Source: an uncultured Prevotella sp. (GTDB lineage Bacteria > Bacteroidota > Bacteroidia > Bacteroidales > Bacteroidaceae). Taken from it: a stretch of 36,186 nt of DNA. The notes below the pieces were generated by a model. It searched no databases. It was given only the letters and a program-made list of their open reading frames with translations, and was not told the DNA's origin. This document shows, one piece after another, positions 1 to 30,296 of this stretch (the stretch's first letter is position 1; each line of letters opens with the position of its first letter). The stretch is taken from the NCBI GenBank assembly GCA_946614175.1, contig CAMOGP010000001.1, forward strand, positions 1 to 36,186, written 5' to 3'. Position numbers and translations under genes: made by a program.

Positions 1-1067
1 ACATCCATGAACATCTGCTCATTCTGGTGGTTCAACGTGATGTTCAACGTGGTGCATACGCCAGAGTTGAAGTGAACCGTATCGCCAAATTCGCCCATAT
101 AGGTCTTTCTGACTGATTGAGTGGGATCCATCGCATCAGGATATTCCACCTCGAACGAGAACTTCAACGGCTGCTTGTTGGCATTGATTTCATGGAATGC
201 AGCATTCTGCGGCGTTGTCAGACCATAGAAGGTAAAGGTCTTGCTCTGAGCCTTTCCCTCGCCTTCTGGTTTGGGGCACCAGAGGGTAATATCCTTGGTG
301 GACTGCTGATCGGCATTGAAATCAAGGGCCGTGACATCATCCTTACTGTTGGCACCCCAGGTGTATTTGCAAGGCTGGTTGTGGAGCACAAAATGACTCA
401 CCTTGACCAGCGTATCCACGGCACTGGCACTGGCGGCAAAGTCCTTGATATTCACCACTACACGCACATTGCTCAAGGCATGTGTAAAATAGACCGTGGT
501 GGTCAGTCCGCCATTATCGGCCTTGGTGGTGTCGCTGAAAAGAATCAGCGGGTCTTCCAGTTTTATATCATCATTGCTATTGTAAACGATAGCAGTTTTA
601 CCTGAGCCCAGTTCACCGGCATAAGTATCGCTACCCGTACCATTGGACTGCGTCGCCCACTGATAGCCTTCGGGCAGGTTATAGGCAATGAAGGTGTGAT
701 CATTATTGCCATCGGACCAGTATATTTTTTCAGGATCACTGGCAGTACCGTTAGGTGTGCGTTCCCAGTTGGTACCATTATAGAGATAGTGGATATTACT
801 ATAGGTGAAAGCCGCCAACGGACTATGGGTACGCTTAATCGTAGTGAACACTATCTTGTCTTCGTTGACAAACTGCGTACGTCCCACGCTGACTTTCAAT
901 GGGGCAACGGTAGCGGCACGAGAGATAGAGACATCCTCGCCGGAGATAGCAACCTGTATGCCTTTCAACTCCACGGCATCGCCAGTAGAGAATACATCCT
1001 CATCACTGCTGCAGGCAGCAAGAAGGGCCATCATGGCCAGGAACAGTATCTTATATGATTTCATCAT
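1..1067 (-). CDS. Type V pilin / fimbrillin-family lipoprotein (partial, 3' end runs off the window; absent from ORF track)
   Basis: Manual translation from ATG at 1067 (ATGA overlap with the upstream stop): MMKSYKILFLAMMALLAAC-SSDED lipobox, SISR^AA processing motif, EKIYWSD and VYFTHALSNVRV fimbrillin motifs; open to position 1. Confidence 0.85.
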   Translation of the reverse strand, partial: MMKSYKILFLAMMALLAACSSDEDVFSTGDAVELKGIQVAISGEDVSISRAATVAPLKVSVGRTQFVNEDKIVFTTIKRTHSPLAAFTYSNIHYLYNGTNWERTPNGTASDPEKIYWSDGNNDHTFIAYNLPEGYQWATQSNGTGSDTYAGELGSGKTAIVYNSNDDIKLEDPLILFSDTTKADNGGLTTTVYFTHALSNVRVVVNIKDFAASASAVDTLVKVSHFVLHNQPCKYTWGANSKDDVTALDFNADQQSTKDITLWCPKPEGEGKAQSKTFTFYGLTTPQNAAFHEINANKQPLKFSFEVEYPDAMDPTQSVRKTYMGEFGDTVHFNSGVCTTLNITLNHQNEQMFMD

Positions 1068-21802: not shown

Positions 21803-21836
21803 CAAAATTAGTCTTTTTTTCTTCTTTTTAGGTAAA
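21803..21836 (-). promoter_or_regulatory. Probable sigma-A promoter of the pilus operon
   Basis: TAATTTTG -7 element at 21803-21810 (minus strand); only an imperfect TTTA about 22 nt upstream as -33. Confidence 0.5.
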
Positions 21837-21890
21837 TAAGACCAAATAATTTACATAAATTAACCCGATAGTTTTCATAATATCCAATAG

Positions 21891-21922
21891 ATTCTTCGAT
21901 TTTTTCGCAAAAATCGAAGAAT
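21891..21922. repeat. Perfect 14-bp inverted repeat (terminator or operator)
   Basis: attcttcgattttt-tcgc-aaaaatcgaagaat; 48 bp downstream of the 21971 gene stop; no U-tract on the minus strand. Confidence 0.7.
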
Positions 21923-21970
21923 CAAAATACGGCAACAATTATTAACACTCAAAACTTACATTTCAACTTA

Positions 21971-22357
21971 CTACAATTCAATTAACCCATAAAAGCAATA
22001 TTGCCCACGAATTATCTGCAATTCACAACCACCAACCAATTCGCTCGGTAAGGTGATGTTGGAAGTATCTTCAGGAATAACAGTCGTATATTTCACAGTT
22101 CCGTCCTCATCCAATAACTGCAGAGTACAACCATCACAGGAAGTATTAAAATATATGGTATGATTATCCAAGCTTAGAGATGGCGCCTTGACAGAACTGT
22201 GACTGATAGATTTTGCAGAGTTTGCAGAATCCATCTTTTTCACGTGCAGGTACACATTCTCGAATGAAAACAAATCCTGAGATTGCGAATAAGCACCAGA
22301 AGGCATCAAAAATAAATGTCCGAGGACCGCAAAAAAATACTTTCCCAATGTTTCCAT
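21971..22357 (-). CDS. Small secreted DUF3244-like Ig-fold protein, paralog 1 (128 aa)
   Basis: Signal peptide ending AYS^Q; C-terminal 70 aa are 45/70 identical, ungapped, to the next gene; CDGC motif, LP..L.G..ELQIIRG.YCF.G. Confidence 0.75.
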   Translation of the reverse strand: METLGKYFFAVLGHLFLMPSGAYSQSQDLFSFENVYLHVKKMDSANSAKSISHSSVKAPSLSLDNHTIYFNTSCDGCTLQLLDEDGTVKYTTVIPEDTSNITLPSELVGGCELQIIRGQYCFYGLIEL

Positions 22358-22378
22358 AACTGTTTAAAATTTACGTGG

Positions 22379-22410
22379 CAAAGGTAAGTCAATTTGCACA
22401 TCGCACCAAA
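22379..22410 (-). promoter_or_regulatory. Bacteroidota sigma-A promoter for the 21971-22357 gene
   Basis: TTTG (22407-22410) - 20 nt - TACCTTTG (22379-22386), exact consensus. Confidence 0.8.
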
Positions 22411-22425
22411 TTTTCAAAAAAAAAT

Positions 22426-22445
22426 AGTTCGGGAAAGTTCGGGAG
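22426..22445. promoter_or_regulatory. Direct-repeat box 1 (AGTTCGGGAA AGTTCGGGAG)
   Basis: 10-bp-period tandem repeat, 15 bp upstream of the -33 element. Confidence 0.7.
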
Positions 22446-22486
22446 AAACGTCAAAAACCGCATTAAAACAATTTGATTTCCAATGC

Positions 22487-22517
22487 ATTACAAAAAAAGT
22501 TCGGGAAAGTTCGGGAG
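22487..22517. promoter_or_regulatory. Direct-repeat box 2 (31 bp, identical to 23195-23225)
   Basis: attacaaaaaaagttcgggaaagttcgggag. Confidence 0.75.
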
Positions 22518-22542
22518 AATGTTAAAATCTGCATTTTGCAAT

Positions 22543-22586
22543 AAAAAAGCGCCTCTTTATGATGTTTTCCATCTTAAAGAAGCGCT
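22543..22586 (-). terminator. Rho-independent terminator after the 22605-23051 gene
   Basis: Minus strand AGCGCTTCTTTAAGATG-gaaaa-CATCATAAAGAGGCGCT followed by a T-tract. Confidence 0.8.
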
Positions 22587-22604
22587 ATCGGTTTGGTTGT
22601 TCTA

Positions 22605-23051
22605 TTACAACTCCACGAAACCAAAGAAGCAATAGTTACCACGAATAATCTGAAGTTCATACTCTCCACTCAGGTAGAATGGCAAAGTTATGGTTGATGT
22701 ATTCTCGGGTATTTCAACTGCATATTCCACATCGCCATCTTCATTGACTAATCGCAGAGTACAACCATCACATGAGGAAGCGAAATACAGTGTATGATCC
22801 TGAATACTCAAAGACGGAATCCTTACTGGGCTACGCTTGATATTTTTAACAGGTATAGATGGATCAATACGTCTAACCTCCAGTGACAAGCCATTAGATA
22901 CTGACGATGAACGTGCAGCCTTCTGAACAGATGAGGCACCTAAAGCCTCTACATACAACTCTGCTTTTGCTTGTTCTGCCCATTCTTGAGCGCTACTACT
23001 TAATGATACTAAAAGGAATAATCCTGCGGATAAAAAAGATTTTTTTAACAT
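22605..23051 (-). CDS. Small secreted DUF3244-like Ig-fold protein, paralog 2 (148 aa)
   Basis: Signal peptide ending SSA^Q; IDP...KRSP..IP linker, then the shared 70-aa C-terminal domain with CDGC. Confidence 0.78.
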   Translation of the reverse strand: MLKKSFLSAGLFLLVSLSSSAQEWAEQAKAELYVEALGASSVQKAARSSSVSNGLSLEVRRIDPSIPVKNIKRSPVRIPSLSIQDHTLYFASSCDGCTLRLVNEDGDVEYAVEIPENTSTITLPFYLSGEYELQIIRGNYCFFGFVEL

Positions 23052-23085
23052 AATAATTTAATAAAGGGTTATAGTAATCGGCGGA

Positions 23086-23116
23086 CAAAATTAAACCTTT
23101 TTCTCCTATACACAAA
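23086..23116 (-). promoter_or_regulatory. Bacteroidota sigma-A promoter for the 22605-23051 gene
   Basis: TTTG (23113-23116) - 19 nt - TAATTTTG (23086-23093). Confidence 0.75.
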
Positions 23117-23194
23117 ATAAAAAGCGAGGAAATTTTTGAATAAAACCCTCTAAAAATAAAATATATCAACAAAAGCCATATTGATTATCAACGA

Positions 23195-23225
23195 ATTACA
23201 AAAAAAGTTCGGGAAAGTTCGGGAG
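23195..23225. promoter_or_regulatory. Direct-repeat box 3 (31 bp, identical to 22487-22517)
   Basis: attacaaaaaaagttcgggaaagttcgggag; begins 2 bp past the stop codon of the TPR regulator. Confidence 0.75.
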
Positions 23226-23227
23226 CA

Positions 23228-24988
23228 CTACCTAAGAGCATTAAAAAGGTTACCTTTTAGCGATCTTGCACCTTTCTGACCAAACAATCGTTCGTTGGCA
23301 TCTGACTTCGCATCAGACAAAACAGACTTAGAATTACCCAACATCGTTCTGATGGAAGCGTCAGACAAACCAAGAATAATTAAGATACATACCTGTACCT
23401 GCAACTGAGAGAGTGGCATTCCTTCTGAGAACGAATTTCCTTCAGCGAACGATTTGTAGAGGAGTGGAAAACTTTTACGAAACTGACTAATCAATAAACT
23501 CCATTCGGCATCGGAAGGATTGGGCTTTTCTGTTTTGCTGTTTGACATCTTGATAAACACCTGAGCTATCGGACTATTTACAAACACAACATTTGTTCCA
23601 ATATATTCTCCTCGGACATCCACTTGTTGCAAGGTTTTTATAACACGACTCAGTTCGGCCTCTTTCGCTTCCTTTGCAGCAATAACACGCTCATAATCCT
23701 TACTCTTCAGCAGTTGCAATTCCGCTGATATCTCTGAACGTGCCCTAACAACACTCTCTAATTTCTTAGATAACCTTTGTATCTCCAGCTTTTTCTTGTT
23801 CGTATAACGAATATATAGCCATAAAAGCAGCAAGACACCAAGTAAGGAGATGCCAACAATGCAGGTTGCCCTCATTCGCAGTTTTCGAGATGCTTCACGT
23901 TCCTGTTCAGCCTCTTTCTGACTTCTATTGTAATTGTACAAGGCCGACATCTGATGAATGGCATTTGTACGCAACTGATCATGGAGCGTATCCTGTGCAG
24001 CTTCATATAACAGGGAGAAATGGTAAATAGAATCTATATCATGACGCTTTCTATAAACATTCAGCAACCCCCTATAGCCTTCAGACAGATAACCATAGCT
24101 GATAGCTTTTCTAAAGGACCGTTCCGCAGATTCCAAATGATTTGCGGACAATTCATAGAAACCTTTGACATAATAATAGCCTTCACGTCCACTGGCAACA
24201 GTTCCATTTTCATAATACAAACCTGACTCCTTTTCAAATATGTCCTTAGCCCACGTTGCCTTATCCATCTGTCCCCTTTCCATATAATAAAAAATGGTGG
24301 GACACAAGACCGTTGCAGCTCCTTGGTTATCACCAATACGCTTCAAATTCTCATATACAGCGTGCGACACATGAAATACTGAGTCAATATCATTCAACAA
24401 GATATACGGACTCACCAATTCAAACTTAGCTAAATAATAATCCCTTTCAGAAGCGGTCTTCCTGACATTCTCAACATAATTGTTCAATGCCCATATCTCA
24501 TCTTGAGGCAGATTCTGATGATGAAATACCAAAGACATCTGCCCATAGATATTCTTAAGCAATTCATAATTACAGTCAGCTCTGGTAGTATCCACTTTAC
24601 TCAGAGCAGTATAATACGCTTGAATACCTTCGGGCGACTGTCCCAAATCTATCAAAGAACAGCCATACACATAATATGCCAGGGCCGCTTCGTCATCATC
24701 ACCATTGGCATCAAAATAATCAGCCAACTCCTTTGTGAGAGAATCGGTAGTAAAAGCTGTACCTGATTTCATTTTGGCTGCAGCCAACTGCAACTGATAC
24801 TGTTTCTGAAAATGAGAACCAAACTCTGACTGATGCTTACCTAAACTATCTAAAATAGCAAGGGCAGAATCGACATCATGATACATAACAGCATTTGCAT
24901 GGGACAACGCATCACGATAATCACGTTTCTCCGAACAAGAAAGAAAAGCAAAAAGAGCGACAAAGAAAAATACGAACTGTCTCATCAA
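23228..24988 (-). CDS. TPR-repeat, membrane-spanning one-component transcriptional regulator with C-terminal LuxR-like HTH
   Basis: N-terminal lipobox FLSC; helical TPR-like repeats (ALAYYVYGCSLIDLGQSPEGIQAYYTAL, YYYVKGFYELSANHLESAERSFRKAI); TM helix CIVGISLLGVLLLLWLYI; coiled coil; LSQLQVQVCILIILGLSDASIRTMLGNSKSVLS HTH-like tail. Confidence 0.75.
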   Translation of the reverse strand: MMRQFVFFFVALFAFLSCSEKRDYRDALSHANAVMYHDVDSALAILDSLGKHQSEFGSHFQKQYQLQLAAAKMKSGTAFTTDSLTKELADYFDANGDDDEAALAYYVYGCSLIDLGQSPEGIQAYYTALSKVDTTRADCNYELLKNIYGQMSLVFHHQNLPQDEIWALNNYVENVRKTASERDYYLAKFELVSPYILLNDIDSVFHVSHAVYENLKRIGDNQGAATVLCPTIFYYMERGQMDKATWAKDIFEKESGLYYENGTVASGREGYYYVKGFYELSANHLESAERSFRKAISYGYLSEGYRGLLNVYRKRHDIDSIYHFSLLYEAAQDTLHDQLRTNAIHQMSALYNYNRSQKEAEQEREASRKLRMRATCIVGISLLGVLLLLWLYIRYTNKKKLEIQRLSKKLESVVRARSEISAELQLLKSKDYERVIAAKEAKEAELSRVIKTLQQVDVRGEYIGTNVVFVNSPIAQVFIKMSNSKTEKPNPSDAEWSLLISQFRKSFPLLYKSFAEGNSFSEGMPLSQLQVQVCILIILGLSDASIRTMLGNSKSVLSDAKSDANERLFGQKGARSLKGNLFNALR

Positions 24989-25464
24989 ATCTTCTCAATC
25001 AGCGCAACGGCATAGGCTGAAATACCTTCCTGCCTTCCTGTAAAACCAAGTTTTTCTGTTGTTGTAGCCTTAATAGAAATCTGATCTGGTTCGCAACCGA
25101 TGACCTGCGCCATACACTGCTGCATCTCAGGAATATGCGGGTTCATCTTAGGTTTCTCCGCACAAATAGTAGCATCGATATTCCCCAGACGATAACCCTT
25201 AGAAGCAATGAGTTCGATTGTCTTCTTGAGGATAATCTTACTATCCATTCCATCAGTCTCTGCAGAAGTATCAGGGAAGTGATAACCGATATCACGCATA
25301 TTAGCAGCACCAAGTATGGCATCACAGATAGCATGAATCAACACATCGGCATCGCTATGACCCAGCAGGCCCATAGTATGTTCCAACTTGATGCCACCCA
25401 TCCACAGGTCGCGACCTTCTACCAACTGATGGACATCATAGCCCATTCCTACTCTTATCATCAT
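24985..25464 (-). CDS. ispF: 2-C-methyl-D-erythritol 2,4-cyclodiphosphate synthase
   Basis: RVGMGYDVH, GHSDADVLIHAICDA, DIGYHFPD, KATTTEKLGFTGRQEGI. Confidence 0.98.
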   Translation of the reverse strand: MMIRVGMGYDVHQLVEGRDLWMGGIKLEHTMGLLGHSDADVLIHAICDAILGAANMRDIGYHFPDTSAETDGMDSKIILKKTIELIASKGYRLGNIDATICAEKPKMNPHIPEMQQCMAQVIGCEPDQISIKATTTEKLGFTGRQEGISAYAVALIEKI

Positions 25465-25507
25465 TCTAATACTTTTGCTATTAAGTTATCCCGTTTATAC
25501 TATATCG

Positions 25508-26713
25508 TTATCTAAAAAGATCTTTCAGACCATCCATATCAAACGCCAAAGTGAAACGCAGCGTTTGATCCAGAGGATTAGTCTGTGCTGTTGAGATGAC
25601 ATAACCCACATCAAGTGAAAAGACATTCATGCGGAAACCGCCACCCACGGTAAAATACTTACGATTACCCTTTGATTCCGATTCATGGTGATAACCGGCA
25701 CGGAGCGAGAACTGATCATTGTACACATACTCTGCACCAACACTCCACTGCACCTCCTCGAGTTCTTCCTTGAATCCGCCTGGAGCATCACTGAAACTGG
25801 TAAAAATACCCTTGATACTCGACATGTCGCTATATTGCTCACGCACATACTGCTGATACTCACTGGCATTATATCTCGTATCATCGCCACCGAGCTCCTT
25901 ATCAATATACTGTTGCATGGTGGGAACCGTAGGAACCAGCAGTTTATTGGCATCAAAGGCAAGTGTGAAGCGGTTATATTCGTCAACAGGCACCAACAAA
26001 GATGCACCTACACGCAGATTGGCAGGAATAAACTGGCTCTCATCATCACCATAGAACGATATCTTACTACCAATATTGGTAACGGTAGCACCAAGACCCA
26101 ACTGGCATTCACGATTGCCAAGCATCACATAGTTATTGTAATACATAGCAATATCTGCTGCAAAGGCAGAGGCTGGCTTAGAACCTTCACTAAAATAGTC
26201 ATAGCGCAAGTCACTGTATATCCAGCGAAGACCAACACCCAACGAAAAAGTCTCACTCAGCATACGAGAATAAGCCACGTCGAGTGCCATTTCATAAGGT
26301 TTCACCGTCATGGACTCATCCAGGCCCTCCTCATCGGTATAAACTTCACCAAGCGAAAAATAGCGCAGAGAACCTGATAATGCGCCATAATCACCTATAC
26401 GATAATAGCCTGCCACATATGCCAAGTCAATATCATTAACCAACTGTCGCAGCCAAGGGGTGTAGTTGAGTGCCACACCTGCACGACTAATGCAGAACGG
26501 ATATTTCGCCAAGTTCCAATACTGAGAGTTGACATCTGGATCTGTAGCCACACCCACGTCACCCATACCGGCGGCACGGGCATCTGGAGCAATGGTCTGC
26601 GAGATAACCGCATGTTCCACTGGGTTGAACGTAGTGTTCTTGTCATCGGCATTAGCCACCACAAAGGATGAAAGGCAACAGCCAATTGCTAAAAGACTTT
26701 TCTTTATATTCAT
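25508..26713 (-). CDS. porV: Type IX secretion system outer-membrane shuttle PorV
   Basis: IAPDARAAGMGDVGVATDPD, YTPWLRQLVNDI, KGNRKYFTVG, NPLDQTLRFTL; downstream of porU. Start ATG 26713 (MNIKKSLLAIG signal peptide) preferred over 26773. Confidence 0.95.
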   Translation of the reverse strand: MNIKKSLLAIGCCLSSFVVANADDKNTTFNPVEHAVISQTIAPDARAAGMGDVGVATDPDVNSQYWNLAKYPFCISRAGVALNYTPWLRQLVNDIDLAYVAGYYRIGDYGALSGSLRYFSLGEVYTDEEGLDESMTVKPYEMALDVAYSRMLSETFSLGVGLRWIYSDLRYDYFSEGSKPASAFAADIAMYYNNYVMLGNRECQLGLGATVTNIGSKISFYGDDESQFIPANLRVGASLLVPVDEYNRFTLAFDANKLLVPTVPTMQQYIDKELGGDDTRYNASEYQQYVREQYSDMSSIKGIFTSFSDAPGGFKEELEEVQWSVGAEYVYNDQFSLRAGYHHESESKGNRKYFTVGGGFRMNVFSLDVGYVISTAQTNPLDQTLRFTLAFDMDGLKDLFR

Positions 26714-26762
26714 TGTATTTGTCGTTATGACGTAATATCGTAATAACGCAACTTCCCCGTTT

Positions 26763-29700
26763 TTATTGTCCAAGAATAATCAATTTCTTAGCCAGTGAGG
26801 CCTGAGAACTACCATTATTACTAATCAGAACACGATAAAGATAGACACCTGTCTTCAACCGGCTACCATTGCCAGCAGTCAAATCCCAGTCAATTGTGTA
26901 AGTATGATCAGTAGGAACTCCTGTCTCAGACTTTCTCCACAACAGACGTCCGGAAGTATCGAAAACCTCCAATTCCACATCCACTTCGCTGCCGGCACGA
27001 TCATGACTGATAATAAAACTTGTAGATGTAGTAGCAGGATTCTTCGTACATACCACATGACTCAATGTGGGTTGTTGAGTAGCATTCACCACAAACGACA
27101 ATTCTGCAACAGAAGAATTATTCTGTGCATCCCAAGCCCTAAAGAGGAGTTTATGCGGACCATCCGACAATTCAGGCAGTACGTAATCAACAGTTCCCTT
27201 ACAATAGTCACCAAAGTCATACTGGAAGCGGTTATTCAGCTGATAGGTAAGATTCATATCATTATCAATGATGAGTTCCAAATCATGACCGAGGCCACCT
27301 GAAACATTAATACCATCCTTATCCGTCAACTCAGCATAGAAATATGGTGTTGCATTCACTGTACTACCATTTATGAACGTCTCACTATTCAGGTAACAAT
27401 AGATTGACGGTCCCACACCATCATTGGCATATTCCTCTGTACCTGTCAGAATAAAACTTTCGCACTCGCCATGAGCAGACAACGTCTTATCGTTATTGAT
27501 AGCATAGACAAGAAATAATCCTGTTTTGTCGGAATAACTGATATCCCTTGGAACAGCAAATGAGAACGAAAACTGACCATTACGAATACTATCACTACCA
27601 CTATATATCGTGTTCGGACGATCCTGGAATTCAAGTGCTGTCTCGGTAGCTACCGGATCATTCCGTTTACCTACTATTGTCTTTTCGATATCTCGAACGC
27701 AAATCGTGACAACACCATTAAAATCCGTATGCCCCGGAATATGTCCCTTCAGCGTCACCTTTGAACCGGCCTTCAGCTGCTGGATACCATCAGAAACAGC
27801 CTTGCCATTGATACTGTCAATAACAGCCTGCTCTATTGGACTGGCCAAAGTCAGGGCTGGATCTCCCAAAAGAACATACTGCAATTTGTTTATAAGCTTC
27901 TCCGTAGAACCTGACACGAAATCATTCTTAGCAAGATAGGCCGCCTCTCCAATAGTAAAACGGCGTCCGTTCTTACTGCCCAGCAAATATTTCATGAACG
28001 ACTGATTCTGCAAACAATTGTAAGAGGCATAAACAGTGCGTGTGGTACCGTAGAAGGCAATAGAGCCACCCTTGTTATTAAACATAGCCGTCTCACCTAT
28101 ATTATCACTCAGACCATCAAAAGGAGCCACATCACAAGCAGCGGTAACCCATAAGGGCAAACGCAAAGAAGAGGGCTCACTAAAGTCCGTAATACGCAAC
28201 ACTGCTTCATGAGAAAGCATCGAAGGACCACCATGTCCAGAATAATTCATCACTAACACACCTGTCTGCAGTTGCTGCTTAATCAGGCGTGTAACATCAG
28301 GAAAGCTATTACCTGTTGAAGAGGTTACACGATTATAGGCATCCCAATAAATCTTTTTGATATCATAATTGGAAAAGGAAGCTTTTACCGCATCTACAAC
28401 AGTTTCAGCATCCTGCATGTGACGGTTCTGGTCGCCATCATCACCGAGGAAACACAAGGTATTCTGCCATGCTCCAGCATAGACATTGGTGCGATAAGCA
28501 TAAATCTTATCGACCAGTATCTTGGCCTCCTCGGCCGTACGAGCAGACAAACGGCCAACAGCGGCATCGAACTTATCCATCAAAATACTACCACCCTCGT
28601 TATCGTCCAGCAAGCAATAATAATCGTCAGACATATAGGATTTTGTAGCACTGAAAGAGTTCTCGCTTTCGTAACAAAGCAGGAAGTCGTCTGGTGACAA
28701 ATTACGCCAGCCATTAGACAGCATACGATTATCCCATGCCCCATCGCCAAAGAGCAACAGATAGCGTGGCTGGTCAGCCTCAGTCTCCGCCCTATCATAT
28801 AGCATCTTCATATATCGGCGATAGGCATTGGCATCGGGCGTACCACTGGAAAACTCATTATAAAGCTCATCAGCAGGTACAATTCTCACACGCAAGCTAT
28901 CATAAGTCTCATGAAGTATCTTCAGTCGCTCTGCCTCTGAAAGAAGTTTCTGGCTAGTAGGTATAACAATTACCATATCGACCGCCGAGTCTGCGTGATG
29001 ATCCTGATTAGTGATATTATAGAGATACTCTGGTACTGGAATCGAAGCTGTAGAAAAATCTACAAGGGGTTTGGGCGTAGAATAACACAACGACACATAA
29101 TCCAACCGCACCTCACCTCCGGAAATCTGACGGAGAATCAGCTTGTTGTTCGTTGCCTTCACCAAGGAATCAGGCAACGTAAACTTCCAGTTGCCCTGCG
29201 TAGCGACAGCGTTACCATCAGACAAAGTACCCGAGCCTGTCAGTCCTGAGGTTGCTGTTATTGTACCGATCGTTGTCCCATTCATCAGTAACGTAGCGGT
29301 AAACCTAGAATCGTATGACAGGTTTACATTCATTTGTGTCGTAGCGGAATGAGCACCTGGCAAAGTAATGACACGGTCACCGCCCACCGTGAGTTTCTCG
29401 CTGGTGTAGAGATTGCGGCCACTGTGGTACCATGCATAGTCATCTACCTCATACAAATCATGATAATCACTGGCTGAAGGATAATACGAACTGATAAAAG
29501 AGGCACTATCCGCTACCAGAGGTTCGTCATCGCTCTCGGTCAGGAAATAATAGCCATAATCAGAATAGGGATTACGGGTACGAGCAAGGGTTGTATTTGA
29601 CGACCAACTAACAGGTCCAGAAGCATAAAACAGTCTTTTTCCATTAATCGTACATGTGGCTATCTCGTTCAAGTCATCTGTTTCCGTAAGATACTCTCCC

Positions 29701-30296
29701 GTTAATACCTCTGGTTGCAGTTCACCGCCATAACCGTAAATTTTTACTTTCTTTGGATTTTTAAATCCTGCTTTTCTAATCAAAGCGTCTGTCAGATGAT
29801 AAAAACCCGTCTTAGAAACACGAATCTTAGCCCAATGGCCATCAGACAAAACTGAATGGGCAGCATAACGCTCGCCCAACGACGACGCACGGCGGGACTT
29901 TTTTGTAGGTGTAGATATCACCTGTAACTGAAAGCTCACAAGTTTTTGATATTTGCCCTCACGAAAAACAAGAGGAACGAACTGGGCATACAAAGTGCCA
30001 CTCTTTCGTGACACACCTACATATTGCTGTATCCGCGGCAGCTCCGGCAGTTGATCAGTAGTAATTGCATGATAACGAGAAACGTCTTCCTCATCCATAT
30101 CCAAAAACTCCGGATAAACAATCCTCACCTCATAGGTCGAGTCTGAATAATTACATCCCAAAGGCCAGGAGTAACTTACGTAAGGTAACAAAGAATCGAT
30201 TTTCACTTCCTCGGCTGTGAGGTTATAGAAACCTTGTGCCATAGTAGAAACCATGCCACATGCCATCATCAGCCAAATCAGAAAAAATCTTCTCAT
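26763..30296 (-). CDS. porU: Type IX secretion system sortase PorU (peptidase C25 family)
   Basis: YNEFSSGTPD, YLLLFGD, catalytic NYSGHGG and TAACD, LLGDP-type VLLGDPAL, C-terminal CTD (NPA...GVYLYRV...KKLII). Confidence 0.95.
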   Translation of the reverse strand: MRRFFLIWLMMACGMVSTMAQGFYNLTAEEVKIDSLLPYVSYSWPLGCNYSDSTYEVRIVYPEFLDMDEEDVSRYHAITTDQLPELPRIQQYVGVSRKSGTLYAQFVPLVFREGKYQKLVSFQLQVISTPTKKSRRASSLGERYAAHSVLSDGHWAKIRVSKTGFYHLTDALIRKAGFKNPKKVKIYGYGGELQPEVLTGEYLTETDDLNEIATCTINGKRLFYASGPVSWSSNTTLARTRNPYSDYGYYFLTESDDEPLVADSASFISSYYPSASDYHDLYEVDDYAWYHSGRNLYTSEKLTVGGDRVITLPGAHSATTQMNVNLSYDSRFTATLLMNGTTIGTITATSGLTGSGTLSDGNAVATQGNWKFTLPDSLVKATNNKLILRQISGGEVRLDYVSLCYSTPKPLVDFSTASIPVPEYLYNITNQDHHADSAVDMVIVIPTSQKLLSEAERLKILHETYDSLRVRIVPADELYNEFSSGTPDANAYRRYMKMLYDRAETEADQPRYLLLFGDGAWDNRMLSNGWRNLSPDDFLLCYESENSFSATKSYMSDDYYCLLDDNEGGSILMDKFDAAVGRLSARTAEEAKILVDKIYAYRTNVYAGAWQNTLCFLGDDGDQNRHMQDAETVVDAVKASFSNYDIKKIYWDAYNRVTSSTGNSFPDVTRLIKQQLQTGVLVMNYSGHGGPSMLSHEAVLRITDFSEPSSLRLPLWVTAACDVAPFDGLSDNIGETAMFNNKGGSIAFYGTTRTVYASYNCLQNQSFMKYLLGSKNGRRFTIGEAAYLAKNDFVSGSTEKLINKLQYVLLGDPALTLASPIEQAVIDSINGKAVSDGIQQLKAGSKVTLKGHIPGHTDFNGVVTICVRDIEKTIVGKRNDPVATETALEFQDRPNTIYSGSDSIRNGQFSFSFAVPRDISYSDKTGLFLVYAINNDKTLSAHGECESFILTGTEEYANDGVGPSIYCYLNSETFINGSTVNATPYFYAELTDKDGINVSGGLGHDLELIIDNDMNLTYQLNNRFQYDFGDYCKGTVDYVLPELSDGPHKLLFRAWDAQNNSSVAELSFVVNATQQPTLSHVVCTKNPATTSTSFIISHDRAGSEVDVELEVFDTSGRLLWRKSETGVPTDHTYTIDWDLTAGNGSRLKTGVYLYRVLISNNGSSQASLAKKLIILGQ

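Follow-up and report, generated by a model that had tools for sequence, protein, structure and literature searches.

A lipid-anchored TPR-HTH regulator with candidate operator boxes and small DUF3244-like partners in a rumen Prevotella

The 36,186-nt stretch of contig CAMOGP010000001.1 analysed here (the window) comes from a rumen Prevotella and carries, beside a pilus operon, a gene for a regulator with a periplasmic tetratricopeptide-repeat (TPR) domain and a cytoplasmic helix-turn-helix (HTH), followed by two genes for small, apparently exported proteins, S2 and S1. This arrangement raises the question of what such a regulator binds on either side of the membrane and which genes it controls. 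An earlier note on this DNA had read the three genes as a signalling module in which the small proteins, or a peptide cut from them, address the TPR domain. We found that the feature is real and that the regulator belongs to a named but uncharacterised family, whose HTH is predicted to recognise direct-repeat boxes at fixed distances from the promoters just downstream. The architecture, the gene pairing, the fixed box geometry and the co-variation of box with recognition helix and of partner with ectodomain were computed here; the operator geometry, the helix-box co-variation and the modularity of input and output are new. L, G and C numbers are our handles for loci, genomes and contigs.

The regulator and its family

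The regulator and its parts are placed as follows:
23228..24985, minus strand: regulator gene, 585 amino acids (aa), BT3442-like family, with a lipoprotein signal, periplasmic TPR superhelix, transmembrane helix and cytoplasmic LuxR-like HTH
24935..24985, minus strand: lipoprotein signal ending at Cys17, read from the sequence
24044..24925, minus strand: TPR ectodomain, residues 21-314, from the AlphaFold model and a fold search; residues ~245-367 track the small protein best
23810..23866, minus strand: transmembrane segment, residues 374-392, from hydropathy, inside the continuous helix 317-429
23282..23407, minus strand: HTH, residues 527-568, from the model and profiles; its recognition helix co-varies with the box

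The reading frame of the regulator spans 23228-24988, and ATG 24985 is its likely start. The order of lipobox, TPR region, transmembrane helix and HTH described in the earlier note is upheld by the sequence, by an AlphaFold model with a mean predicted local distance difference test (pLDDT) of 90.4, and by the lipobox Cys, which is conserved in 117 of 125 family members. In the model, TPR-like helical hairpins (21-314) lead into an unbroken helix (317-429) that runs through residues 374-392, the single strong hydrophobic segment of the protein, and the HTH lies in a helical tail (527-584). A fold search with the ectodomain placed RapI on top (Z 21.3, root-mean-square deviation (rmsd) 3.8, 309 residues aligned), with LGN (Z 20.6), Pins (Z 20.1) and NprR (Z 19.7) nearly level, a Rap/NprR-like TPR fold in agreement with the analogy to RRNPP receptors drawn in the earlier note. 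The TPR_1 profile matches 45 of 71 family members. The tail gives weak profile matches to RcsB, EL222 and FixJ, and GerE matches 5 of 46 members (best E 2.8e-6), one of them above the cut-off, so that by these profiles the tail appears LuxR/GerE-like at the level of the family only.

This large family comprises 2,522 clusters at 50% identity and is present in 167 of the 401 genomes searched in the genus and in 71 of 151 in the taxonomic family. The nearest named relatives of the window regulator are Prevotella communis proteins of ~80% identity. Among 71 aligned regulators, NF053779 (BT3442_fam) matches 45 at the E-value limit used, DUF6377 matches 14, NF053520 nine and NF058541 (SusR) one. 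Relatives match, at the limits used, profiles named for BT_3442 and BT_3441 of Bacteroides thetaiotaomicron (NF053779, NF053775; DUF3244, PF11589; PDB 3d33, 4g5a and 3sd2), while the window regulator, S1 and S2 themselves fall below these profiles, without a match to NF053779 or NF053775. BT_3442 is described as a TPR protein and BT_3441 as Ig-like within a MACPF cluster, with no regulator role given in the accessible text (PMC2954219). The literature found, which leaves most subscription papers outside the search, gives the family no regulator, operator or partner role, and an Atlas search with the homologue P0008 returned only hypothetical or TPR clusters. SusR-type regulators also join a periplasmic domain, a transmembrane helix and a C-terminal DNA-binding part; however, the SusR profile matches only the one regulator in 71, and no sugar-utilisation genes were found among the 60 first cargo genes scanned. 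Transmembrane regulators are reported to be enriched in Bacteroidia, with TPR domains not mentioned in the part of the article accessible (PMC10269533).

Boxes, promoters and the recognition helix

The control elements around the two small genes are the following:
23204..23224: distal box of the S2 promoter, a direct repeat of 10-bp period that begins 3 nt past the regulator stop
23186..23198, plus strand: IHF-like site WATCAANNNNTTR, between the box positions, an exact match to the consensus
23086..23116, minus strand: S2 promoter, −33 TTTG at 23113-16, 19-nt spacer, −7 TAnnTTTG at 23086-93; proximal box decayed
22541..22586, minus strand: intrinsic terminator after S2, stem 22548-22586 plus U-tract, z −6.0, conserved in L147 and L150
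22496..22516: distal box of the S1 promoter, from the repeat search
22424..22444: proximal S1-promoter box; spacing 72 bp to the distal box, 13 nt to the −33 element
22379..22410, minus strand: S1 promoter, −33 TTTG at 22407-10, 20-nt spacer, −7 TAnnTTTG at 22379-86
21890..21923: 15-bp perfect hairpin after S1, an inverted repeat without U-tract, kept and extended in L147 and L150

We take WATCAANNNNTTR to be the IHF consensus, and TAnnTTTG and TTTG to be the Bacteroidetes-type −7 and −33 consensus; a sigma-70 promoter and terminator scan was uninformative for this phylum. The three box copies (22424-44, 22496-516 and 23204-24) were matched by 0 in 100 shuffles, and no further copy occurs anywhere in the assembled genome, which is 72% complete. 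The earlier note had described two like cassettes of box, promoter, small protein and hairpin. The elements are there, but the cassettes are not equal: the S1 promoter has two boxes and the S2 promoter only the distal one, its proximal box being decayed in the window and in the orthologues compared, and the hairpin after S1 lacks a U-tract. This hairpin may be an RNA-stabilising stem or a palindromic protein site.

The same geometry recurs throughout the family. Among 111 non-redundant regulator loci with 750 nt or more of sequence past the gene, 33 carry a tandem repeat of period 10-11 (at least 90% identity) behind the regulator, against 7 of 296 control regions from the same genomes and 0.0% of shuffles, while the control periods 7-8, 13-14 and 15-16 gave 2, 0 and 0 of 111. 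Under a looser rule, 70 of 125 loci have a box (shuffles 10.9%) and 47 an additional copy (shuffles 3.2%). The box sequence is specific to each locus, and the copies cluster ~60/50 and ~130/120 nt before TAnnTTTG. IHF-like sites, by the consensus above, are enriched as well (14 of 111 against 5 of 296).

Co-variation was analysed on the 59 strong boxes, with the other 66 excluded, and on regulators dereplicated at 45-50% ectodomain identity (n=25-29). Similarity of the recognition helix predicts similarity of the box (partial rho 0.23-0.31, p 0.001-0.005, with the ectodomain and the remaining DNA-binding domain removed); ectodomain identity does not (partial rho −0.06 to 0.05). The best three of 558 eight-residue windows fall in the recognition helix. 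At L151, which occupies the same site, the recognition helix and the box have both changed.

Several results weigh against this assignment. The HTH of the window regulator itself has no family profile match. At 40% dereplication (n=15), the helix-box co-variation is weaker (p 0.057, 0.072 and 0.001), and single-linkage dereplication, which shrank the set to 9 and 2 groups and left no usable test, gave p 0.14-0.29 for the 9 representatives, with the best windows in the ectodomain. An unrelated ectodomain window (305-314) scored 0.29, compared with 0.31 for the helix. The first three bases of the box vary among orthologues, the perfect copies in the window may reflect recent homogenisation, and the HTH and the box, as adjacent DNA, may have been swapped together.

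Given the fixed geometry and the co-variation with the recognition helix, which strengthen the earlier view of the boxes as operators, we read them as the putative cognate operators of an activator. Very probably, the HTH binds as a dimer to direct repeats spaced by one helical turn, and an IHF-type bend lies between the distal pair and the proximal one. Activation rather than repression seems probable because the proximal pair leaves the −33 element free, with a gap of 13 nt between them.

The small partners and the ectodomain

Two small genes follow the regulator:
22605..23051, minus strand: S2, 148 aa, with a signal-like N-terminus, a lineage-specific extension, a conserved linker and an Ig domain like DUF3244 and the C-terminal domain (CTD) of type IX secretion system (T9SS) cargo
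21971..22357, minus strand: S1, 128 aa, a tandem paralogue of S2 with a weak signal-like N-terminus

S1 and S2 are 57% identical over 92 aa, and S1 is closer than S2 to the single-copy partner gene of L151. Both genes look intact: compared with L147, synonymous codon changes number 33 and 39 and replacement changes 37 and 24. Their signal peptides were judged by eye, and neither reached a 19-residue hydropathy of 1.6. S2 matches DUF3244 (PF11589) with 19.9 bits (E 7e-4), under the 25-bit cut-off, S1 has no Pfam match, and a single-sequence PDB search with S2 returned nothing. The three best folds for the S2 model are all DUF3244 structures, among them 3d33 (Z 8.9, rmsd 2.8, 84 aligned) and 4g5a (Z 8.1), and the model also resembles T9SS-CTD and FN3-type sandwiches. 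Across the family, the partner is a conserved folded Ig domain of 120-150 aa; DUF3244 matches 38 of 71 partners, NF053775 six (at the E-value limit used) and Por_Secre_tail four. A linker motif of [KR]x[PLI] type is present in 58 of 71 and a lipobox-like motif in one, and the long N-terminal extension of S2 is found in fewer than 20% of members. A profile of partner alignment A3 weakly matches full-length Tannerella potempin A (E 0.09) and the C-terminal region of gingipain R2.

DUF3244 is related to the T9SS CTD, because its profile sits at C-termini class-wide, within 25 aa of the stop in 30 of 30 loci, and because the S2 model aligns to CTDs bound to the translocon (Z 6.0-7.4; best 8glk_D, Z 7.4, rmsd 2.1, 69 aligned). 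The class-wide PF11589 search, whose tally includes the unpublished genomes G658 and G744, captures mostly the C-termini of long proteins and is no census of partners. A profile comparison of the partner alignment with the C-terminal domain of the window PorU lent no support (probability 0.8%). A Lys among the six C-terminal residues, a common feature of the CTD tails compared and one that we take to be the motif of type A CTDs, occurs in 3 of 71 partners. Of five pair-bearing genomes tested for PorU, four, each 99% complete, did not yield it, and PorV was above the cut-off in 1 of 5. Because few partners have the terminal Lys and PorU was not found in these four, T9SS export of the partners is unlikely to be general.

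The pairing of regulator and DUF3244-like gene that the earlier note proposed to survey is conserved as a widespread Bacteroidales cassette. A partner gene lies on the same strand within 900 nt downstream in 65 of 111 regulator loci (56 of 99 in an earlier, stricter count) and divergently upstream in 3 of 62. In the L032, L033 and L034 subgroup, the divergent upstream partner goes together with an HTH region that has a different ending. Within 900 nt, 40 of 111 loci have no partner, and two of these have a copy further downstream. In the opposite direction, all three small genes of the window's own genome adjoin a regulator, as do all eight stand-alone partner copies in 10 other genomes, four of these copies being from loci already known. 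Nine genomes were chosen for a partner-less regulator; in six of them, which are 85-99% complete and keep the regulator, no stand-alone partner was found. The dependence is one-sided, in that every such partner copy had a regulator neighbour and regulators also occur without a partner. Strong boxes are kept in 16 of 40 partner-less loci, where the promoter is often followed at once by a gene for secreted cargo, and in 37 of 65 partner-bearing ones. A search of the 5 kb behind 43 partner-less or weak loci for a fused partner domain yielded none, only two more stand-alone copies and a weak candidate (L031). In L002/L274 (G508), a stop interrupts the partner gene, and the regulator and both boxes are intact. 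The tandem pair is local, being seen in 1 of 99 loci of the stricter count and in the close orthologues L147, L149, L150 and L153; a further close orthologue in this tally, L170, is cut by its contig end.

The partner follows the ectodomain rather than the HTH. Partner similarity correlates with ectodomain similarity (rho 0.59-0.65; partial 0.59-0.60, p 0.003) and far less with that of the DNA-binding domain (rho 0.16-0.33; partial −0.03 to −0.13), even though the HTH and the boxes stand between ectodomain and partner on the chromosome. Tree distances rank in the same way, with 0.75 for the distal ectodomain and partner, 0.46 for the distal ectodomain and its own HTH, and 0.35 for HTH and partner. 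The best 99-residue window tracking the partner is 269-367, in the membrane-proximal TPR region, and within the partner the Ig core (0.57) follows the receptor more closely than the linker (0.36). In G418, three paralogous cassettes (L062, L114 and L116) share 75-78% identity in the ectodomain and 80-91% in the partner but only 32-39% in the HTH, which points to an exchange of the output half while the input half stayed together. A predicted complex of ectodomain 18-372 with S2 50-148 scored 0.42 against 0.00 for the best control; runs agreed in at least 23% of contacts with a partner pLDDT of at least 69. Of 157 solved complexes, 116 reach the mark it passes, as do 2 of 215 mismatched pairs, but scores past the mark and up to 0.60 include only 18 of the 157 solved complexes and both mismatches, so that this prediction supports binding weakly. 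The earlier proposal that the small protein couples to the TPR ectodomain is thus backed by similarity, tree distances and the G418 cassettes, and only weakly by the complex.

Other data speak against such coupling. Residue-level mutual information was no higher than under shuffled pairing (maximum z 6.9, compared with 7.0, 5.0 and 4.8), and shared tree splits, at 14-17 of 68 for all partner comparisons, do not discriminate. Shared ancestry could give part of the partner-ectodomain correlation if the HTH were merely the exchanged part. Partner-less regulators have lost little ectodomain conservation (0.478 against 0.511). In addition, for three partner-less regulators a partner-bearing paralogue was sampled from the same genome, and in two of these cases it is close (76% and 94%), which makes supply of the partner in trans possible.

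Feedback, outputs and genomic setting

From these results, we tentatively propose a scheme to which we give somewhat less than an even chance as a whole. The lipid-anchored, single-pass regulator would bind the 10-bp-period boxes through its cytoplasmic HTH and activate the promoters just downstream, and S1 and S2, made from these promoters and exported, would bind the periplasmic TPR ectodomain and damp the regulator, forming a feedback loop inside the cell envelope. That the folded partner binds the membrane-proximal TPRs, with the signal passing along the continuous helix 317-429, appears reasonably likely. Given binding, we lean toward an inhibitory, CpxP-like sign, in which loss, cleavage or titration of the partner would free the regulator; damping is favoured over an obligate co-component because the partner is often lost while boxes and cargo are retained. 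In this lineage, the partner gene seems to have been duplicated, with S1 retaining full double-box control and S2 the distal box only. Against the scheme, it must be said that the sign of the feedback is its least certain step, argued from gene loss alone, and that the whole is computational, built from sequences and models.

The scheme has partial precedents. In the Cpx system (PMC2904494), a small regulator-controlled periplasmic protein, CpxP, likewise feeds back on a sensor domain, with a link to pilus biogenesis; however, CpxA and CpxR are a kinase and response regulator pair of unrelated folds, and here the inhibitory sign is inferred only. FimS of the FimS/FimR pair of Porphyromonas gingivalis (PMC11053733), a fimbria-controlling sensor described there as having an unknown ligand, is the nearest characterised periplasmic TPR sensor in the phylum. 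Its periplasmic part is of similar length (338 aa compared with ~355 here) and anchored at both ends, and the nine regulators matching NF053520 add to the likeness, but FimS has two transmembrane helices and a histidine kinase, whereas in the window regulator a lipid anchor stands in for the first helix and the HTH is part of the same chain.

The coupling data would also suit a partner that stabilises or activates the ectodomain within the same cell, with positive feedback and possibly on/off subpopulations. Precedent comes from VtrA/VtrC, ToxR/ToxS, TcpP/TcpH and PsaE/PsaF (PMC9214523), where a single-pass membrane factor is encoded next to a periplasmic partner and both evolve fast, and the close partner-bearing paralogues beside two partner-less regulators fit as well. 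We nevertheless judge this reading rather unlikely: six genomes with intact regulators, several with strong boxes, yielded no stand-alone partner, and the partner gene has its own boxed promoter and does not overlap the regulator gene. The window system also departs from the VtrA/VtrC type in its C-terminal, LuxR-like HTH, its lipid-anchored TPR superhelix and a partner, behind its own boxed promoter, that by its best folds is Ig-like rather than lipocalin-like, and it is no obligate heterodimer, given the 40 loci without a partner within 900 nt and the six genomes in which none was found. A little less likely still is a reading in which the small proteins merely begin the output of the regulon, acting for instance as protease inhibitors, chaperones or cargo immunity proteins, and make no contact with the regulator, which has some other ligand. 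BT2221, a DUF3244 protein according to PMC10434189, was proposed as the protease inhibitor BtiZ (PMC3462683), proteases of the C10, M4 and trypsin-like types occur among the cargo, the partner is dispensable, and the weak potempin A match points the same way. Yet potempins are lipoproteins (PMC9890683), only one of the 71 partners has a lipobox-like motif, the same partner family accompanies whatever cargo, it was never found without a regulator in the window's own genome or the 10 others, and it tracks the ectodomain across the intervening HTH.

The peptide that the earlier note envisages as cut from the small protein, taken here as a density signal in the manner of RRNPP systems (Rap, NprR, PlcR, AimR) that leaves the cell and re-enters its own periplasm or that of its neighbours, has lost ground and is now improbable. 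The ectodomain does fold like RapI and NprR, with a superhelix of similar size, and the adjacent gene encodes a putatively secreted protein, the conserved [KR]x[PLI] linker could fill a TPR groove or serve as an Arg cleavage site, a cargo of secreted proteases, SpvB-domain and radical-SAM proteins suits group behaviour, and the G418 paralogues share their input half. However, LGN and Pins tie with RapI and the fold match is therefore generic, the precursor is a conserved folded domain whose core tracks the receptor better than the linker and whose N-terminal extension is not conserved, no partner was found in six regulator-bearing genomes, and no exporter, importer or peptidase was seen beside the window cassette. 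RRNPP receptors are intracellular, 250-500 aa long, with propeptides of 10-100 aa (PMC10075063), against a membrane-spanning receptor of 585 aa with a periplasmic TPR domain and folded partners of 128-148 aa in a Gram-negative host here; membership fails on precursor size and receptor location, and the structural analogy stands. The CTD-like fold, the C-terminal position of DUF3244 class-wide and the coupling of the regulator to porU-porV-ispF in this lineage would suit a cargo-less T9SS tag that is exported normally and, on a stall, accumulates and signals, coupling transcription to secretion capacity. With PorU not found in 4 of 5 pair-bearing genomes, PorV rarely above the cut-off, few terminal Lys residues and a por linkage local to one clade, this is quite improbable. 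Least probable is that boxes and IHF-like sites are recombinase arm sites left by insertion of a mobile cassette: the arm regions of integrases likewise combine IHF sites with direct repeats spaced by one turn, and the cassettes occur in many contexts, but the promoter distance is fixed, the box sequence changes with the HTH helix, the cassette has its boxes in the interior rather than at its ends, and no integrase gene was noticed among the window reading frames.

Under the feedback scheme, the family-wide output would be secreted or surface factors encoded in the downstream operon. The first downstream genes listed number 73, of which 60 were scanned. Of the scanned genes, 29 had no match; the others include thioredoxin-like, VKOR and radical SAM/SPASM proteins, C10, M4 and trypsin-like proteases, SpvB-domain proteins, outer-membrane barrels and T9SS cargo. 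In the window, the minus-strand order is porU, porV, ispF, regulator, S2, S1 and then the pilus operon, with these flanking elements:
24985..30296, minus strand: porU-porV-ispF, upstream of the regulator; the ispF stop overlaps the regulator start
21803..21864, minus strand: the pilus operon's own promoter, −7 element at 21803-10, GTTAA motif 54 nt upstream (21860-21864), no regulator box

The pilus operon (window 1-21767) is type V pilus-like, with DUF3575, DUF5119 and eight Mfa_like_1 fimbrillin genes among eleven further open reading frames. Three large lipoprotein-like frames in it (899, 565 and 871 aa) have no Pfam match, and its pilins (50-87% orthologue identity) diverge much faster than DUF3575 and DUF5119 (91-96%). 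On the earlier idea that this operon is a plausible output, the data point both ways. No regulator box precedes it, its promoter has a −7 element of its own and the unrelated GTTAA motif, the module lies upstream of 0 of 20 other DUF3575 operons (three of the regions being shorter than 3 kb), and L151, L152 and L162 have the module at the same site with the pilus operon missing. On the other side, the S1 hairpin has no U-tract, the layout of module and pilus operon is kept in four orthologues, and in L074 (G354) an orthologous pilus operon (70-82% identity) stands head-to-head with a 40%-identical family regulator and partner, although the box of that regulator is not present in the shared region. 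In DUF3575-operon promoters, GTTAA lies 53-54 nt before the −7 element in 7 of 23 and 63-65 nt before it in 5 of 23, counts that are without a shuffled control; such promoters include those of the window, L188, L191, L193, L208, L210 and L211. This suggests a separate regulator for DUF3575 pilus operons. Direct control of the pilus operon by the module is thus doubtful, and the operon would be reachable only by read-through from the S1 promoter, which we likewise hold to be on the unlikely side. Contigs from four RNA runs of three studies include S2 and S1 along with portions of the regulator and of pilus genes; no listed contig joins S1 to DUF3575, and the contigs carry no strand, level or transcript-end information.

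Upstream, the regulator is probably translated from the por transcript, because the ispF stop shares one base with its ATG at 24985; the same overlap is seen in orthologue L147. The coupling to porU-porV-ispF is confined to one clade. Elsewhere in the same genome, a second full cassette (C187:210-3710) comprises a 27%-identical regulator, a partner and a 411-aa lipoprotein that by eye resembles a C10 protease, and a different, AT-rich 10-bp repeat precedes its promoter. Frames on C73 (274 codons) and C27 (349 codons) keep the HTH tail with little or no TPR region and have no partner gene. In addition, a DUF3244-headed locus, BT3571-5, is reported to be strongly up in a peptidase mutant (bioRxiv 10.64898/2026.04.10.717545).

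We see a small chance that Bacteroidales hold many one-protein signalling cassettes, a large and shuffled library, in which inputs (TPR and partner) and outputs (HTH and box) recombine freely and a cargo-less relative of T9SS tags acts as the cognate protein signal of the periplasmic TPR receptor. If so, one partner could act on several secreted-weapon or pilus operons at once and might cross from cell to cell through vesicles or lysis as a kin- or density-specific signal. This would be a native protein-based communication system in the phylum, where we know of none established. Beyond this, the TPR ectodomain ligand, once found, could bear on what FimS-type TPR sensors detect, and natural orthogonal activator-box pairs could serve as engineering switches in gut and rumen Bacteroidales. 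Operons headed by the family encode secreted proteases, SpvB-domain proteins, radical-SAM enzymes, outer-membrane barrels and T9SS cargo, and the predicted operators, the helix-box correspondence and the candidate cognate partner make it directly testable.

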